DNA of 52,838 nucleotides from an uncultured bacterium (GTDB lineage Bacteria; Patescibacteriota; Minisyncoccia; UBA6257; 2-01-FULL-56-20), in the NCBI GenBank assembly GCA_963745135.1, contig CAVUWW010000013.1, positions 1-52,838 of the forward strand. The letters are read 5' to 3'. The notes beneath the pieces were generated by a model. It was not told where the DNA came from, made no database searches, and saw only the letters and a list, made by a program, of their open reading frames with translations. Below are positions 14,672-25,720 of the stretch, one piece after another (position 1 is the first letter of the stretch; the number at the start of each line of letters is the position of its first letter). A program made the position numbers and the translations under genes.

Positions 14672-15277
14672 ATGCAACGCCAATCTCCACAATCCGGCCA
14701 GTCCCTCATCGAGCTTCTCGTCGCCATCGGCCTCTTCTCTATCCTCTTTGCCATTGCGGGCGGGGGATTCGTGAACGCGCTCCATGCCCAGAACCAGGTT
14801 TCGGCGGAGATGGCGGCGGAAAGCAACGTCGGCATCGCGATTGAGGAGATGGCGCGGGAGATGCGGACCGGCTACCTTTTCTGCCACGATTTGAACGGCG
14901 TTTCAACGTGCGACACGAGCGATCCCTCGTACAATCGCCACTGCACATTCGATGCGGCAACCCAACTGCTCACCTGCTCCGACCTTGAATATTACGACGC
15001 GAACGGCGAGAAAATCGATTACGTCCTGAAGGGCGGCGTCCTGGAACGCGGAGACAACGATGCGTACCAGCCGATCACGGGGGATAATGTGACCGTGCGC
15101 TCGCTCTCATTCGTCCTTCACGGCAATACGGAAGGCGACCATTGGAACCCGCGGATCACCGTCACGATCGGCATTGCGCCGAACAATTCGGGCGTCTCAT
15201 GGAACACGGTTGACTTCCAGACCACGGTGAGCGCAAGGGAGATTGATTGCACGGCGGGAGCGAGCCCGAGCTGCTGA
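14672..15277 (+). CDS. pilin-like protein (PilW-like minor pilin)
   Basis: N-terminus MQRQSPQSGQSLIELLVAIGLFSILFAI. Confidence 0.75.
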   Translation: MQRQSPQSGQSLIELLVAIGLFSILFAIAGGGFVNALHAQNQVSAEMAAESNVGIAIEEMAREMRTGYLFCHDLNGVSTCDTSDPSYNRHCTFDAATQLLTCSDLEYYDANGEKIDYVLKGGVLERGDNDAYQPITGDNVTVRSLSFVLHGNTEGDHWNPRITVTIGIAPNNSGVSWNTVDFQTTVSAREIDCTAGASPSC

Positions 15278-15363
15278 AATCCTTAATCCTTAATCGTTAA
15301 TCCTTGACTAAAAATTTCGATTCCCTAGCGTTGTAATTGTTTAAGGATTAAAGATTAAGGATT
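15278..15363. repeat. inverted array hairpin, CCTTAAT / ATTAAGG units, between convergent genes
   Basis: Left arm aatccttaatccttaatcgttaatcctt, right arm aaggattaaagattaaggatt. It exactly fills the gap between stop 15277 and stop 15366. Confidence 0.8.
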
Positions 15364-15365
15364 GT

Positions 15366-16478
15366 TCAAATCTCCATCGTCCCATCCGCTTCCAGTTTGT
15401 ATTTTTTCTTTCTTAAAAACGCCATATATCCCGCGGCGCCGATCATGGCGGCGTTGTCGAGGTTGTATTTGAAATCGGGGACGAGAAATTGCACGCCAAT
15501 GAGTCCGGCCATGCGCTCCATGCTTTTTCGGAGTGCCTTATTCGCCGCGACGCCACCGCAGAGGATAATTGATTCCGCCGCGCATTCTTCAGCGGCTCGG
15601 CGTGTTTTCGCGACGAGCACGTCGATGGCGGCCTGTTGGAAGGAAGCGGCAACATCTGAGAGGCGGGAGGCGGGAGAAGGGAGAGGGGAGGAGAAATTCA
15701 TCTTCCGTCTTCCGTCTCCCATCTCCCTTAGGTAATAAAGAACCGCCGTCTTCAATCCCGAAAAACTAAAATCGTAATTCTTCTGGTCCAGCATCGGGCG
15801 CGGGAAAGTGATGGCGAATGGATTGCCTTTTTTCGCGAGTTTTTCGATTTCCGGCCCGCCGGGATAGGGAAGGTCGAGCAACCTCGCCACTTTATCGAAT
15901 GCCTCGCCGGCCGCGTCGTCGCGCGTCTCGCCGAGCCGCTCCCATTTCGAGAACGATTCCATGCGGAGCAAAATCGTGTGTCCGCCGGAGACGATGAGCG
16001 CGATCGCGGGGAACAGGGACGAGGGGCGAGTAGTGAGTAGGGAGGTATAACCCTTTAAGGATCTTGACGGAAGCAAGAAACTGTAAAGATGGCCTTCGAG
16101 ATGGTTCGCGCCGATGAGACGAGGGAGAGGAGAGAGGGGAGAAGGGAGAAGGGATTTCCGTATTTTTTTTGCAAATTCAATTCCTGTCCACAGTGCAGGT
16201 TCTAGCCCTGGTCCTACAGTAACTGCAATAATATCAATTTTTTTCTCCATCCCTCCTCCCTCCTCCCCTCTCAACCTCTCCCAAAGCAATGGCAAATTCT
16301 TCAAATGTTCCCGCTTTGCCAAATTCGGAACCACGCCGCCGAACGGTCGGTGGATCTTGATTTGCGAGGCGACCAGATTTTTTAAAATCTTAAAACGCGG
16401 ATTCTTCAATCCGCCGGAAGCGTCGAGCAAAGCGATGCCCGTCTCGTCGCAGCTCGTTTCGATGGAGAGGATTTTCAT
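15366..16478 (-). CDS. tsaD: tRNA N6-threonylcarbamoyladenosine synthesis protein TsaD
   Basis: 370 aa with KILSIETSCDETGIAL, VGPGLEPAL and NHLEGH. It carries low-complexity inserts encoded by purine/pyrimidine heptamer arrays. Confidence 0.9.
   Translation of the reverse strand: MKILSIETSCDETGIALLDASGGLKNPRFKILKNLVASQIKIHRPFGGVVPNLAKREHLKNLPLLWERLRGEEGGGMEKKIDIIAVTVGPGLEPALWTGIEFAKKIRKSLLPSPLSPLPRLIGANHLEGHLYSFLLPSRSLKGYTSLLTTRPSSLFPAIALIVSGGHTILLRMESFSKWERLGETRDDAAGEAFDKVARLLDLPYPGGPEIEKLAKKGNPFAITFPRPMLDQKNYDFSFSGLKTAVLYYLREMGDGRRKMNFSSPLPSPASRLSDVAASFQQAAIDVLVAKTRRAAEECAAESIILCGGVAANKALRKSMERMAGLIGVQFLVPDFKYNLDNAAMIGAAGYMAFLRKKKYKLEADGTMEI
15661..15728. repeat. intragenic inverted arrays (GGGAGAR / TCTYCCS heptamers) inside tsaD
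   Basis: Left arm aggcgggaggcgggagaagggagaggggaggag, loop aaattca, right arm tcttccgtcttccgtctcccatctccct. Translated in frame as ..GDGRRKMNFSSPLPSPAS... Confidence 0.75.
16121..16282. repeat. intragenic purine array and pyrimidine array flanking the conserved TsaD GPG core
   Basis: Purine array gagggagaggagagaggggagaagggagaaggga at 16121..16154. Pyrimidine array tctccatccctcctccctcctcccctctcaacctctccc at 16244..16282. Confidence 0.65.
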
Positions 16479-17091: not shown

Positions 17092-17168
17092 ATCTCGGAA
17101 TTATAGGAACAAATTTTCAATGAGGCAACACGGAGCATTACGCGAAGCTGCGCTTCGCGTCGTCCAGA

Positions 17169-17435
17169 CCCCATTTCCATAATATCTCCAGCCCGCGTTG
17201 CGAGCAATTTTGCCCGAGTGCCAGGCGCGGCGAAGGAGACAATGGCTCACGCCATGGCTCCGAGTCCCAACGCCGCGATTCGGGCGAAATCGCCGCAACC
17301 CTCCGGGATTTGCCCAAACGCCGCAATGGCTGCGTTGCCTTGGGCTCGCGGTACCGAAAGGTACGGCTTCGCCCTCGCGCCTTGCCCTTGCGGCGCTTGG
17401 GTCGAATCGCGGGCGGAGAGATTATGGAAATGAGG
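17169..17435 (+). ncRNA. unclassified structured RNA, copy A (paralog of 23196..23465)
   Basis: 21-bp closing helix (17169..17189 with 17415..17435). At least 5 further helices change compensatorily relative to copy B. G.U pairs favour the plus strand. Confidence 0.7.
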
Positions 17436-17545
17436 TCACCACTAGACGATGGGAGCCGTCTTCAGGAGTTTAATAAATTTCAGGCGTTCCCGCAACTTTT
17501 TTTTATTGTTGGCAGGGCACGAAATTCATAATACAATTGATTTAT

Positions 17546-22231: not shown

Positions 22232-22361
22232 AGCTTGGTAGGCAAAAGCTCTTTTATAACAGATATTCCAAGGATTTACTGCTTCGTTGCAGCTTCCAGC
22301 TTGTCGCACAAACGATGCGTTGAAAGCTGCAACCAAGCGGCAGAAAGAAGGAGGAACCGCC

Positions 22362-23063
22362 ATGCTTACTCATGGAACCGCCTCGCAACTTCATGTTGAC
22401 GGGGGATACGTTGAATTTCAACAGGCAGTGCTTCGCGCCCTGCCTCACGACATCGATCCGAACATCGCCGACGGGTGGCGAAACAACACGGGAGCGCTCG
22501 CAAAAGTTTTGCGCGAGGCCCTGCTTCCGCCGGACAATCCCGCAACGGAAGCCGCTCCGGTTCCCAAGCCCGAACCGCAACCGCTCCTCATCCCCGTCTG
22601 CACGGAGAAGGTTTTCCCGAGAGTGGCTTTCACGGCTCGCGACCGCTTCGTCGTAAACACGAAGAAGAACGCACCCGTGAAGATCTCCTATCTGGGAGAC
22701 AACTTCAAGGCGTGGTTCCTCGGCAAAGAGGAGCAACCGTTTGCGGGATCGACCCTCAACTGCAGCAAGCTCTCGCGCTACTCCGTCGACGGCCCGATTA
22801 TCAAGGAACTCGGCGGCGAGGAAAAGGCCGAGACCACGCTCGCCGAACTCTTTTCGCTCATGGAAATGCAGAAGAACGGCGAAAGCGGTGCGCTGCTCAC
22901 AAACGGATACGCCAATATCTTTTACATCAAGGATACGGCCGGCGGTCTCCGGACGGTGGACGCGCGCTGGGGCGGCGTCGGCTGGCTCGTGCACGCCTTC
23001 GCCGTGGCGCACCCGTACGAGTGGAGCGACGGGTGCCGGGTCTTCTCCCGCGATTCTCGTTAG
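22362..23063 (+). CDS. DGR target protein (variable C-terminus, no signal peptide)
   Basis: Start moved to ATG 22362, preceded by AAGGAGG at -13..-7. The last 38 codons form the VR. The C-terminus ..WGGVGW...YEWSDGCRVFSRDSR is like C-type-lectin-fold DGR targets. Confidence 0.8.
   Translation: MLTHGTASQLHVDGGYVEFQQAVLRALPHDIDPNIADGWRNNTGALAKVLREALLPPDNPATEAAPVPKPEPQPLLIPVCTEKVFPRVAFTARDRFVVNTKKNAPVKISYLGDNFKAWFLGKEEQPFAGSTLNCSKLSRYSVDGPIIKELGGEEKAETTLAELFSLMEMQKNGESGALLTNGYANIFYIKDTAGGLRTVDARWGGVGWLVHAFAVAHPYEWSDGCRVFSRDSR
22939..23052 (+). other. DGR variable repeat (VR)
   Basis: Gap-free alignment to 23667..23780. All 23 mismatches are at adenines of the template copy. Confidence 0.9.
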
Positions 23064-23111
23064 CACTCGGTCGCTTTGCCCTTTTAACCCTTGGACACTC
23101 TGTCCCTTTGA

Positions 23112-23150
23112 CCCCCGCATCTTCTTCGGAAGCGGCGGGGGTTTTCTTTT
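23112..23150 (+). terminator. intrinsic terminator after the DGR target gene
   Basis: Stem cccccgc / gcggggg followed by ttttctttt. Confidence 0.7.
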
Positions 23151-23151
23151 G

Positions 23152-23160
23152 TGCTATGAT
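23152..23160 (+). promoter_or_regulatory. extended -10 box TGcTATGAT upstream of the structured RNA and TR
   Basis: gTGcTATGAT is the same 10-mer as at 13394..13403. Confidence 0.45.
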
Positions 23161-23195
23161 AAATCACGAAGGCAATGAATTCTGCGGAACGGCTA

Positions 23196-23465
23196 GACCC
23201 CTATCTCGAAAATAATTCAGCTCGCGTTGCGAGCGATTTTGTCCGAGAGCTAGGCAGGACAAGGAGGCAATAGTTTTTACTATGGCTCCGCAGTCCTAAC
23301 GACGCGATCGGACAAAATCGCCGCAACCCTCTGGGATCTGGCCAAATGCCACAATGGCTGCGTTGCTTCGGGTTCGCAGTACCATGAGGTACAGCTTCAC
23401 CCTCGCGCCTTGCCCTTGTGGCATTTGGCCGAGATCGCGGGCGAATTATTTTCGAGATAGGGGTC
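23196..23465 (+). ncRNA. unclassified structured RNA, copy B (inside the DGR cassette)
   Basis: Perfect 23-bp closing helix (23196..23218 with 23443..23465) followed by a U-run. Conserved core blocks and covarying helices relative to copy A. Confidence 0.7.
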
Positions 23466-23666
23466 TTGTTTTTCCGCCATGCCTTCGGGAAAACGCTCTG
23501 CCGGAATCACGTCGGGTACGCTTGCCGTGAGTGCGCAGGACGGAGTACTCTTACGCAACATACGAGAATTGGTATCTGCGGCTGGCGGACTTCTACGTCC
23601 CGAATACGATACAGTCCTGAGAGTAATCGAAGGGCAGTGGCGCGGATGGCCGCGGATACGAGACGA

Positions 23667-23780
23667 CCGGCGATCTCCGGACGGTGAACGCGAACTGGAA
23701 CGACGACGGCTGGAACGTGAACGCCAACGCCGTGACGAACCCGAACGAGTGGAACGACGAGAACCAGGTCTTCTCCCGAA
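23667..23780 (+). other. DGR template repeat (TR)
   Basis: In the VR frame it reads TGDLRTVNANWNDDGWNVNANAVTNPNEWNDENQVFSRN. Every Asn codon is AAC. Confidence 0.9.
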
Positions 23781-23791
23781 ACTGTCGTATG

Positions 23792-23825
23792 GCCTCCCGC
23801 TATCTCGCGGGAGGCTTGCTTTTTA
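23792..23825 (+). terminator. hairpin plus U-run directly 3' of TR
   Basis: Stem gcctcccgc / gcgggaggc, then ttgctttttat. The loop contains the avd stop codon on the other strand. Confidence 0.55.
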
Positions 23826-24144
23826 TGCCGTTGATCCAGCCGCCGAGCTGCCTCCCCACCTCGTCGAACTTTTCCGAAAGTAAGATATACTTCTGGTTGT
23901 CGAGCGCTCCCACGTCCCAGAGTATCTGCAAAAAGAACTTCGCCACGTCGAGCCGCACGTTCGCTTTCTGGAGATAGGGCAGCTTCTGCTCCTTGCCCAA
24001 GTAGCTTGCGATGAACAGCAGTTCAGCCGTTTCAACTAACGAGCGATCGATCTTTGTGCCGAGCGAATATCTGAAATCTTTCGGCATGTGCGGCAGGAAC
24101 TCGTGCCAGGCCTTGTATGCGGCCACCAGGTGCTGGATGATCAA
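23800..24144 (-). CDS. avd: Avd-like accessory variability determinant (four-helix bundle); start uncertain
   Basis: ..AYKAWHEFLPHMPKDFRYSLGTKIDRSLVE...LSEKFDEVGRQLGGWINGIK resembles Avd / 23S-IVS four-helix-bundle proteins. The long ORF to 24351 is antisense to the RT, so TTG 24144 is taken as a provisional start. Confidence 0.7.
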   Translation of the reverse strand: MIIQHLVAAYKAWHEFLPHMPKDFRYSLGTKIDRSLVETAELLFIASYLGKEQKLPYLQKANVRLDVAKFFLQILWDVGALDNQKYILLSEKFDEVGRQLGGWINGIKSKPPAR

Positions 24145-24158
24145 AAGCTGGGAACTGC

Positions 24159-24169
24159 GGGGGGGGGGG
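24159..24169. repeat. G11 / C11 homopolymer between avd and RT
   Basis: 11 consecutive G, 19 nt upstream of the RT ATG. Confidence 0.9.
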
Positions 24170-24188
24170 TACGTGAAAATTTGAATCC

Positions 24189-25244
24189 ATGAAGATACAG
24201 TTTGCCGGAAATTTGGAAAAAATCGCGAGCGCCGAAAACCTGCTGGAAGCTTGGCGGGAATTCTTGCCGGGCAAGCGCGGAAAGCATGACGTGCAGGAAT
24301 TCCAACTGCGGCTGATGGATAATATTCTATCACTCCGCGCCGATTTGACAAACGGTACGTACCGCCACGGCGGGTATCAGCATTTCAAAATCGCCGACCC
24401 GAAGCCGCGCGACATCCATAAGGCAACCGTGCGCGACCGCCTCGTCCACCACGCCATTTATCGCCAGCTCTATCCATTCTTCGACAAGACGTTCATCGCC
24501 GACTCCTTTTCCTGCCGCGACGGCAAGGGGACGCATGCGGCGCTGGATCGGTTTTGCGTGTTCGCACGGAAAGCCAGCAAGAACAACACGCGCGCCTGTT
24601 GGATCCTGAAGTGCGACATCCGTAAATTCTTCGCGAACATTGACCATCAAATTTTATTGGAGATTTTGGGAACATATATTCCGGACAAAAAAATTTTGCG
24701 GTTGCTGCGGGAAATCATCGAAAGCTTTTCTTCGACCATGCCCGGCATCGGCTTGCCCCGCCCTTTTGGAGCAAAACCAAAAGAGCGGGGCTTGCCGCTC
24801 GGCAACCTCACTTCGCAATTGTTTGTGAACGTTTACATGAACGAATTTGATCAATTTGCAAAACATACATTGAAGGCAAAATACTATGTCCGCTACGCCG
24901 ACGATTTCGCCGTCTTTTCCCCGAACCGCGATTGGCTCGAAATCATCCTGCCTGAAATCCGGAATTTCCTTTTGAACCGGCTCAAGCTAAATCTACATCC
25001 CGAAAAAGTTTCAATCAGAACCATTGCCTCGGGCGAGGATTTCCTCGGCTGGGTGCATTTTCCCGACCACCGCGTTTTGCGGACGGCGACGAAGCGGCGA
25101 ATGATGAGGAGATTGGCGGACCATCCGAAAGAAGAAACGATCCAGTCTTATCGCGGGCTTTTGGGCCATGGGAATGCGCAGAAGTTGACATCGAGATTAA
25201 AAGGCTTTTGGGTTGCAAACGAAAATGCAACGGATGCCTTTTGA
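24189..25244 (+). CDS. DGR-type reverse transcriptase
   Basis: 351 aa with RT motifs including LPLGNLTSQLFVNVY ([I/L]GxxxSQ) and YVRYADDFAVF. No maturase or endonuclease domains. Confidence 0.9.
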   Translation: MKIQFAGNLEKIASAENLLEAWREFLPGKRGKHDVQEFQLRLMDNILSLRADLTNGTYRHGGYQHFKIADPKPRDIHKATVRDRLVHHAIYRQLYPFFDKTFIADSFSCRDGKGTHAALDRFCVFARKASKNNTRACWILKCDIRKFFANIDHQILLEILGTYIPDKKILRLLREIIESFSSTMPGIGLPRPFGAKPKERGLPLGNLTSQLFVNVYMNEFDQFAKHTLKAKYYVRYADDFAVFSPNRDWLEIILPEIRNFLLNRLKLNLHPEKVSIRTIASGEDFLGWVHFPDHRVLRTATKRRMMRRLADHPKEETIQSYRGLLGHGNAQKLTSRLKGFWVANENATDAF

Positions 25245-25339
25245 GGGGCTCCCGGAGGCGCGAAGGCGCCGAGGGCGAGCGGCCGGCCAGCAGGCCTGAA
25301 CGCTGTACCCTCAAAAGGCATCCGTTGCATTTTCGTTTG
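25216..25339. repeat. perfect 32-bp inverted repeat with a 60-nt GC-rich spacer at the RT 3' end
   Basis: caaacgaaaatgcaacggatgccttttgaggg (25216..25247) pairs with ccctcaaaaggcatccgttgcattttcgtttg (25308..25339). The RT stop codon lies in the left arm. Confidence 0.9.
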
Positions 25340-25360
25340 TCGCTTGATAAACTTTTACCT

Positions 25361-25720
25361 ATGACCTTGGATGAATTCCAGAAAGCCGACTTGCGCGTGG
25401 CTACCATCGTCGCCGCGGAACGGGTCGAGGGGTCGGAGAAATTGTTGAAGCTTCAAATCAATCTCGGAGAGGAATTTCGGCAGATTATTTCGGGAGTGGC
25501 CAAGCAATACGCTCCCGAGGAATTGGTCGGCAAGCAGGTCGTCGTCATCGCAAATTTGGAACCGCGCACTATAATGGGTTTGGAAAGCCACGGGATGCTC
25601 CTCGCGGCGCACGGCGAAAATGGCTCGCCCTCCCAACTTTTGCCGGGCGAAAATCGGGAAGGCGAGCCGGTGATTTTAACGGTCGAGAAGCCGGTTCCGG
25701 CGGGAGCGAAGGTTTCGTGA
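25361..25720 (+). CDS. tRNA-binding domain protein (CsaA / EMAP-II-like OB fold)
   Basis: Start moved to MTLDEFQKADLRVATIVAAERVEGSEKLLKLQINLG, a typical tRNA-binding domain N-terminus. Confidence 0.75.
   Translation: MTLDEFQKADLRVATIVAAERVEGSEKLLKLQINLGEEFRQIISGVAKQYAPEELVGKQVVVIANLEPRTIMGLESHGMLLAAHGENGSPSQLLPGENREGEPVILTVEKPVPAGAKVS

Follow-up and report, generated by a model that had tools for sequence, protein, structure and literature searches.

Background

The diversity-generating retroelement (DGR) that concerns us here lies on a 52,838-nt stretch of contig CAVUWW010000013.1, from an uncultured bacterium of the Patescibacteriota (we call this whole stretch the window), and it is best approached through two systems already in the literature. 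The first is the DGR of Bordetella phage BPP-1. Its cDNA synthesis requires 20 nt upstream of the template repeat (TR) and a 140-nt spacer, Sp, downstream of it. Sp has an Avd-binding stem-loop right after the TR, and one of its strands pairs with the 3' end of the TR up to the priming nucleotide, A56 (Handa et al. 2018, PMC6182149; Handa et al. 2024, bioRxiv 10.1101/2023.10.23.563531). That strand then runs on to pair with sequence 5' of the TR, and this second duplex, the cPRT Stop, halts polymerization (Handa et al. 2018, 2024). In a survey of 278 DGRs that took in the 40 nt before and the 100 nt after each TR, 207 had 9-bp stems shortly after the TR (Handa et al. 2024, bioRxiv 10.1101/2023.10.23.563531). 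The second system is the DGR of the candidate phyla radiation (CPR). Architecture B3, written TR-(avd)-RT, where RT is the reverse transcriptase, is the layout of 90% of the CPR DGRs in one published set (Wu et al. 2018, NAR 46:11, PMC5758913), and DGR clade 2, whose targets in CPR have no family match, is confined to Patescibacteria (Roux et al. 2021, PMC8144416).

A sequence-only reading of the window had called its DGR layout unusual, with avd antisense between the TR and the RT, and had raised the prospect that a large, 270-nt structured RNA upstream of the TR is part of the DGR RNA. Our own account is plainer, and we hold it with considerable confidence: an ordinary CPR DGR of architecture B3, its TR on an RNA unit of its own, with a passenger repeat in the loop of a leader hairpin that we call P1. 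The finding as first posed therefore matters little, the reversed avd being the published CPR norm and the large RNA a passenger repeat. Along the way, the largest environmental DGR clade has gained a secondary structure, supported by covariation, for its template RNA.

An ordinary layout

The locus is a genuine DGR. It has a TR and variable repeat (VR) pair with adenine mismatches, an RT bearing the DGR-type motifs [ILV]GxxxSQ and YxDD, and an Avd. TR adenines account for 25 of the 29 VR/TR mismatches (131 nt compared), and all but one of those 25 fall at codon positions 1 and 2. Over the best ungapped stretch, 119 nt long, 22 of 23 mismatches are on adenines, so the repeats have not drifted. 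The avd product scores 46.6 bits against Pfam bAvd (cut-off 40) and 70.7 bits, E = 1e-19, against NCBIfam DivGenRetAVD, which is under that model's cut-off of 80. The target protein has no Pfam or NCBIfam family match. An exact-protein look-up of the RT gave no contig with an identical protein on record. At gathering scores, Rfam sees three tRNAs in the window and nothing more; at permissive E-values it returns only chance-level matches across 23100..23900, and so nothing for the 270-nt element or the leader.

Hundreds of CPR DGR RTs share 57-79% identity with the RT of the window, and RTs in that range adjoin TR/VR pairs in more than 100 loci. Two collections each contained more than 570 RT relatives, almost all labeled CPR, and from among these relatives we surveyed 80 genome loci and 80 metagenome loci, nearly all labeled CPR or Patescibacteria and with RT identities of 57-75% (numbered with an L below; related genomes carry a G, G000 being the window's own). 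In 148 of 161 loci, the window included, the gene directly 5' of the RT encodes an Avd homolog on the minus strand. By set, all 76 genome loci with upstream DNA, and 71 of 72 such metagenome loci, have avd reversed. Twelve of the 13 loci where we detected no avd have their RT less than 100 nt from a contig end, which leaves 148 positives among 149 informative loci. Wherever the TR and VR could be called (63 genome and 44 metagenome loci), the order VR(+), TR(+), avd(-), RT(+) never varies, and in most genome loci the avd stop lies within about 40 nt of the end of TR homology.

The window follows suit. TR and RT share a strand with avd between them on the other, and the RNA segment 3' of the TR overlaps the 3' end of avd, both just as the sequence-only reading described. 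Where that reading went astray was in calling the layout unusual, because a reversed avd is the norm in related loci and is published as B3. This is a standard CPR-type DGR, of clade 2 (Roux et al. 2021) and architecture B3 (Wu et al. 2018).

A passenger repeat in the P1 loop

What sets the window apart is the distance between its two repeats. VR and TR are 728 nt apart in the window and 387-565 nt apart in relatives (genome-set median 465), two outliers being L063, with extra DNA upstream of the promoter and outside the leader, and L084, with a second VR. When the stretch between the two repeats is aligned with that of relatives (eight of them, L027-L048), a precise 270-nt gap falls between the GGCTA and the CGGTT of P1. 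At this junction L029 runs from TGCGGAACGGCTA directly into CGGTTTTTCCGCC; the window has TGCGGAACGGCTA, then the 270 nt, then TTGTTTTTCCGCC. The 270-nt element has no match in any of the 160 related DGR loci (591 kb plus 261 kb, or 852 kb), and the DGR of the same genus (locus L027, genome G001) is without it. A survey of related loci had been proposed with the original claim; its outcome was a reversed avd in nearly all and the large RNA in none, an absence that the sequence-only reading had itself named as refuting it. Even the U-run in which the element was said to end belongs to the DGR: 23466..23473 is part of the 3' strand of P1, and GGTTTTTCCGCC is kept in L029 and L028, which have no element.

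Copies of the element are scattered through the rest of the genome. BLAST finds ten full copies and one truncated copy on nine contigs of a 753-kb, 77%-complete assembly, and multiple copies also occur in related genera (G001, G002, G017, G019 and G029). The second copy in the window has no link to a DGR, and here the sequence-only reading, which had put a paralog near 17169 away from any such element, was right. From the dispersed copies and the absence from related DGR loci it follows that the element is not a DGR component. It is a passenger repeat, inserted in the apical loop of P1.

The repeat is a striking structure in its own right. Together with its flanks (23184..23480) it folds at -180.2 kcal/mol, with z = -16.5 against shuffles. 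Nineteen compensatory pairs separate the DGR copy from the copy at 17166..17437, and across the ten full copies 104 consensus pairs are 93% canonical, as against 36-42% when partners are slid; 42 of them change on both sides. The helices hold 42 G-U cells and 35 A-C cells, which is to say no strand bias, and because these are balanced neither the selected strand nor the level of selection (RNA or DNA) can be distinguished. The copies share the termini (TA)GACCCC...GGGGTC(TA), with TA at the 5' flank in six of ten and at the 3' flank in four of ten. We saw no clear target-site duplication at the DGR empty site (GGCTA, then CGGTT), and no transposase partner turned up for the repeat, although no search was aimed at transposases. 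With many dispersed, non-coding copies and terminal inverted repeats, the family resembles miniature inverted-repeat transposable elements. A general habit of inserting into hairpin loops was considered and rejected: flank pairing reaches z <= -2 in 3 of 11 copies, and the DGR copy itself has z = -1.3. The truncated copy, on contig C49 of G000 (15207..15370), consists of the first ~130 nt followed by an inverted copy of the first ~50 nt, and so is a shorter hairpin derivative.

Could such an element nonetheless be a working part of the DGR RNA, for example a scaffold that replaces the 3' spacer in an unusual layout? We regard this as highly improbable. Its position between a conserved promoter and the TR, which makes transcription with the TR probable, speaks for it, as do its extreme stability and covarying helices. 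But the element is missing from all 160 related loci and from the same-genus ortholog, at least ten other copies lie in unrelated contexts, its helices have no G-U over A-C strand bias, both TR flanks already have partners in the conserved leader (as described below), and the layout is the published B3 norm.

As a passenger, the repeat probably shares one transcript with the TR, since it sits downstream of the conserved, putative TR promoter and inside the conserved leader. In minimum free energy (MFE) folds of 23167..23826 the helices that we call H8, H9, P2 and P5 and the post-TR hairpin are the same with or without it, and everything outside P1 is identical, because the ends of the element form a long stem that extends P1. 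With 270 nt of foreign structure set into the P1 loop by nature, the window points to where a DGR RNA might accept insertions, and a possible tolerance in P1 is of interest for engineered DGR systems. In two other loci, L058 and L062, some 20-25 extra nt that form a small hairpin occupy this very spot at the tip of P1 (alignment columns 189-214), so the loop seems to tolerate extra sequence.

A likely promoter and a structured leader

Just past the terminator-like hairpin that closes the target gene, a hairpin with equivalents in the alignment of relatives, comes an extended -10 box, TGcTATGAT. The family consensus there is TTTTTnTTnTGnTAnAATA, or TGnTAnAAT; TAnnnT is present in 53 of 60 aligned rows and TGnTAnnnT in 39. 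From its sequence and position we consider the box the likely promoter of the RNA that contains the TR.

The 60 rows are those of 59 relatives plus the window with its repeat removed. An RNAalifold consensus, scored on the same alignment from which it was derived, has 74 pairs, 65 of which change on both sides. The pairs are 89.7% formed, compared with 38-51% for slid partners, and the covariation score is 0.60 against 0.11-0.18; none of 500 shuffles reaches the observed values. We also scored 38 metagenome loci that took no part in the derivation and are not near-duplicates of the training rows. In these held-out loci P1, P2, H8, H9, P4 and P5 are 88-96% paired, with slid controls at 23-60%. 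The post-TR stem-loop, 91% paired where slid controls give 64-83%, does not discriminate.

Some of the helices deserve individual mention. P1 has eight pairs in the alignment, seven of them changed on both sides, with 93% of cells paired. P2, at 89% in the held-out loci (slid, 41-45%), is capped by the same CGGnUACGnnU-type loop as P1. In the window, P1 (23184..23195 with 23466..23476) and P2 (at 23507..23530) share an apical CGG(Y)UACG(R)YU, with a UNCG-type UACG loop. The two loops may be paired protein-binding sites.

With the window's element removed, the alignment gives a leader of ~220 nt, then the TR, then a conserved segment, CGCAACTCTCTTCATTTCTC..GGGAGTTTTnTTTT. Neither this leader nor its covariation turned up in the literature searched. 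In the lineage of the window DGR, the TR appears to be carried on a non-coding RNA unit of its own, which would run from the -10 box through the structured leader and the TR to the stem-loop and U-run that follow.

A proposed clamp on the two flanks of the template repeat

Part of the leader is a single strand, the clamp strand, that finds partners on both sides of the TR. Its first side pairs with the 3' end of the TR (H8) and its second with the sequence at the TR's 5' edge (H9), whose 3' strand ends on the last base before TR/VR homology begins at 23660. Since one leader strand pairs with both flanks, the TR is a loop held at both ends. In the alignment H9 has 12 pairs, 10 of them covarying, and is 96% paired; in the held-out loci H8 reaches 89% and H9 again 96%. 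The window's own MFE fold predicts both helices. Within the clamp columns G23572 is invariant, and A23567, U23569, G23571 and U23573 are nearly so.

These observations allow a proposal, one that we make with slightly more doubt than belief: the DGR RNA of CPR B3 elements may be permuted, with the primer and stop strand in the conserved 5' leader and not in a 3' spacer. Priming would then occur from a leader nucleotide at the H8/H9 junction, near the conserved G23571 and the invariant G23572, and the RNA would end at the post-TR stem-loop. If the RNA is permuted in this way, the convergent avd right after the TR is explained. If the clamp holds, neither a long 3' spacer nor any RNA antisense to avd is needed for priming, and the concern raised by the sequence-only reading, that the priming segment 3' of the TR overlaps avd, would fall away, a 5' leader strand taking that part. 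The 100 nt downstream of the TR, the span taken in by the published survey of post-TR stems, is mostly antisense avd in B3 elements, and the 40 nt that the survey covered on the other side stop short of the clamp strand, which in the window lies 77-102 nt upstream. The 5'-clamp model is directly testable in the existing in vitro cDNA assay.

Every feature named in the sequence-only reading (TGcTATGAT, the 270-nt element, TR, hairpin, avd and RT) is present in the sequence at the positions given there. The hairpin next to the TR has a 10-bp stem, and the avd stop codon spans its stem/loop boundary. An equivalent hairpin occurs ~13 nt past the TR in all 64 loci compared (median -15.6 kcal/mol), and at least five T are found in the 10 nt after it in 46 of them. 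The stem-loop may be an Avd-binding element, an intrinsic terminator, or both. As a terminator, it would with its U-run end the TR RNA at, or overlapping, the stop codon of the convergent avd.

The alternative is read-through. The hairpin would serve mainly to bind Avd and be a weak terminator, the TR RNA would run on, antisense through avd, as the mRNA of the RT, and avd would be affected by transcriptional interference or antisense pairing. A family avd-RT spacer of only ~40 nt favors this, as do a scan that finds no plus-strand RT promoter, the 18 of 64 hairpins without a clear U-run, and the co-directional TR, spacer and RT of the Bordetella phage. Yet a U-rich tail does follow the hairpin in the other 46 loci, AT-rich, -10-like segments lie between the G-tract of the spacer and the RT ATG, and co-transcription of TR and RT is not a requirement (Wu et al. 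2018, PMC5758913). We think read-through unlikely, and favor a TR RNA that ends at the stem-loop.

A simple repeat between avd and the reverse transcriptase

The start codons of avd and RT face apart in the related loci, typically with 20-50 nt between them. In 143 of 148 loci this gap contains a simple repeat: G6-14 (mode G10) in 134, (GT)n in seven and (CTGG)n in two. The G11 of the window is the longest G/C run in its genome. Three pairs of contigs are identical over 2.2, 3.3 and 4.2 kb save for the length of the G-run, and a fourth pair differs by one GT unit. Because otherwise identical contigs differ only there, the tract is unstable in length, unless these are homopolymer assembly errors. 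The spacer repeat is likely a switch, on/off or tuning, for the DGR, and a putative one. We found no link between DGRs and homopolymer or slipped-strand switches in the literature searched. L041 and L050, two B3 DGRs in one Kaiserbacteria metagenome-assembled genome (MFLL01), have near-identical avd-RT spacers, with G10 in one and G9 in the other.

How the tract would act, through transcription or through the avd reading frame, is less clear-cut. In only 28 of 134 loci is the first minus-strand ATG upstream of avd in frame with it, and a canonical in-frame avd start lies within 60 nt in 78 of 134, not clearly above chance. As a separate matter, a sigma-70-like match at 24351..24324 on the minus strand (TTGTCA, 16 nt, TAGAAT, with an upstream TG; 10/12) lies inside RT and points toward avd. 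It is the only such match in 23000..25400, where shuffles average 1.3, so about what chance would give. Its use would give avd an mRNA leader of ~170 nt, antisense to the start of RT.

Is this copy still at work?

Several points count against the account given here, and it is as well to have them in one place. One locus, L133, has ample upstream DNA (740 nt) and still no detectable avd. A simple promoter scan skips the TGcTATGAT box, which has no good -35. The functional roles that we give to H8, H9 and the stem-loop are argued from topology. In BPP-1, moreover, compensatory mutations in the stop duplex failed to restore activity (Handa et al. 2024, bioRxiv 10.1101/2023.10.23.563531), so more than pairing may be involved. 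The insertion splits the highly conserved, nearly invariant P1 loop motif GGYUACGGYU, which may matter for function. Lastly, upstream of the G11 tract there is a minus-strand ATG (24190..24188) that a G10 tract would place in the avd frame; with the G11 of the window it opens an out-of-frame ORF of 80 amino acids. Because avd is out of frame with this upstream ATG, the window's copy of the DGR may be impaired or switched off.

The last two points, taken to their end, make a silent or decaying copy: the insertion has destroyed the P1 loop, G11 has put avd out of frame, and the element has no current function. We find this somewhat unlikely. The open reading frames (ORFs) of RT, avd and target are intact, and the pattern of 22 adenine mismatches out of 23 in the best ungapped stretch is that of repeats that have not drifted. 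The TTG at 24144 coincides exactly with the start of the Avd domain. Extra sequence in the P1 loop is also seen in L058 and L062, and the predicted fold is unaffected by the insertion. A DGR that still works despite its passenger would be the likelier reading.

Features of the window

Coordinates are collected in Table 1. Beyond the rows listed there, a perfect inverted repeat (arms of 32 bp, spacer of 60 nt) spans 25216..25339, its first arm including the RT stop codon; it is far longer than the other terminators nearby.

Table 1. Features of the DGR locus and of the dispersed repeat, in window coordinates.
Feature	Position	Strand	Details
Second copy of the repeat	17166..17437	+	between tRNA-Glu and parA
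DGR target gene	22287..23063	+	ORF; VR 22932..23060 at C-terminal end
Terminator-like hairpin and U-run closing the target gene	23112..23150	+	stem 23123..23141, tail TTTTCTTTTG (terminator scan)
Extended -10 box TGcTATGAT, likely TR RNA promoter	23152..23160	+	same alignment position as the family consensus
P1, 5' strand and first loop half (GGCUA)	23184..23195	+	23184..23193 pairs with 23468..23476
Inserted ~270-bp Y-shaped palindromic repeat copy	23196..23465	+	clean gap against relatives
P1, loop remainder and 3' strand	23466..23476	+	UUGUUUUUCCG
P2	23494..23542	+	17 pairs, 16 changed on both sides
Clamp strand	23558..23583	+	23558..23571, H8 side; 23572..23583, H9 side; 77-102 nt upstream of TR
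H8	23558..23571 with 23779..23792	+	spans the last 10 nt of TR/VR homology (23779..23788) and 23789..23792
P4	23586..23601	+	88% paired in held-out loci
P5	23612..23639	+	94% paired in held-out loci
H9, 3' strand	23648..23659	+	pairs with 23572..23583; 12 of 12 pairs formed in the window
TR	23660..23788	+	match to VR 22932..23060
Post-TR GC-rich stem-loop and U-run	23791..23826	+	10-bp stem 23791..23816, 6-nt loop, then TGCTTTTTAT
avd	23800..24144	-	TTG start 24144, TAG stop 23802..23800; convergent with TR RNA, divergent from RT
avd-RT spacer	24145..24188		44 nt; G11 tract at 24159..24169 (+)
DGR reverse transcriptase	24189..25244	+	RVT_1, E = 5.7e-26; LGNLTSQ and YADD in translation

Comparison with known systems

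Bacterial genomes are home to several families of gene-less, palindromic interspersed repeats: Correia/NEMIS in Neisseria, ERIC/IRU in enterobacteria, and REP/BIME. The repeat in the window is like them in being multi-copy, non-coding, ~270 bp long and strongly folded, with inverted termini, and in lying between genes, where it is probably co-transcribed with its neighbors. It differs in its Y shape, its three long helices having inner parts that covary from copy to copy, and in termini that are not fixed in sequence.

Phase-variable contingency loci offer the nearest likeness for the avd-RT spacer; among them are the poly-G promoter spacers of Neisseria and the (TA)n between hifA and hifB of Haemophilus influenzae. 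As in those loci, the simple repeat of the DGR occupies a short control region between divergent genes and differs in length between otherwise identical contigs. The interchange of G(n), (GT)n and (CTGG)n at the same position also recalls them. The genes that would be controlled are, by contrast, those of a hypermutation machine and not of a surface antigen, and any switching of their expression would be putative.

Set beside the CPR DGRs of architecture B3 and clade 2, the window has the same order and strands (target with VR, TR, reversed avd, RT), a CPR host and a target likewise without a recognizable domain. The only difference is the 270-nt repeat in the leader, which takes the VR-TR spacing from ~465 to 728 nt.

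The comparison with BPP-1 is the most instructive. In both, RNA flanks the TR (and is required in BPP-1), and a stem-loop stands just 3' of the TR, at the position of the Avd-binding element. The clamp of the CPR elements has the same order and polarity as the BPP-1 strand, meeting the 3' end of the TR first and then its 5' flank, and the stop-like duplex is 12 bp in the window against a published average of 13 bp. The arrangement is another matter. The BPP-1 strand belongs to the 140-nt spacer 3' of the TR, whereas in the window the non-coding leader upstream of the TR supplies it; avd is co-directional and upstream in BPP-1, whereas in the window ~40 nt separate the TR from a convergent avd stop. 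Both TR flanks find their partners in the 5' leader, where BPP-1 uses a 3' spacer: the topology is alike and the arrangement permuted, so the RNA of the window DGR is at best like the BPP-1 RNA and not of the same RNA family. Taken as a whole, the template RNA of this lineage would be a permuted, but topologically equivalent, counterpart of the DGR RNA of BPP-1.

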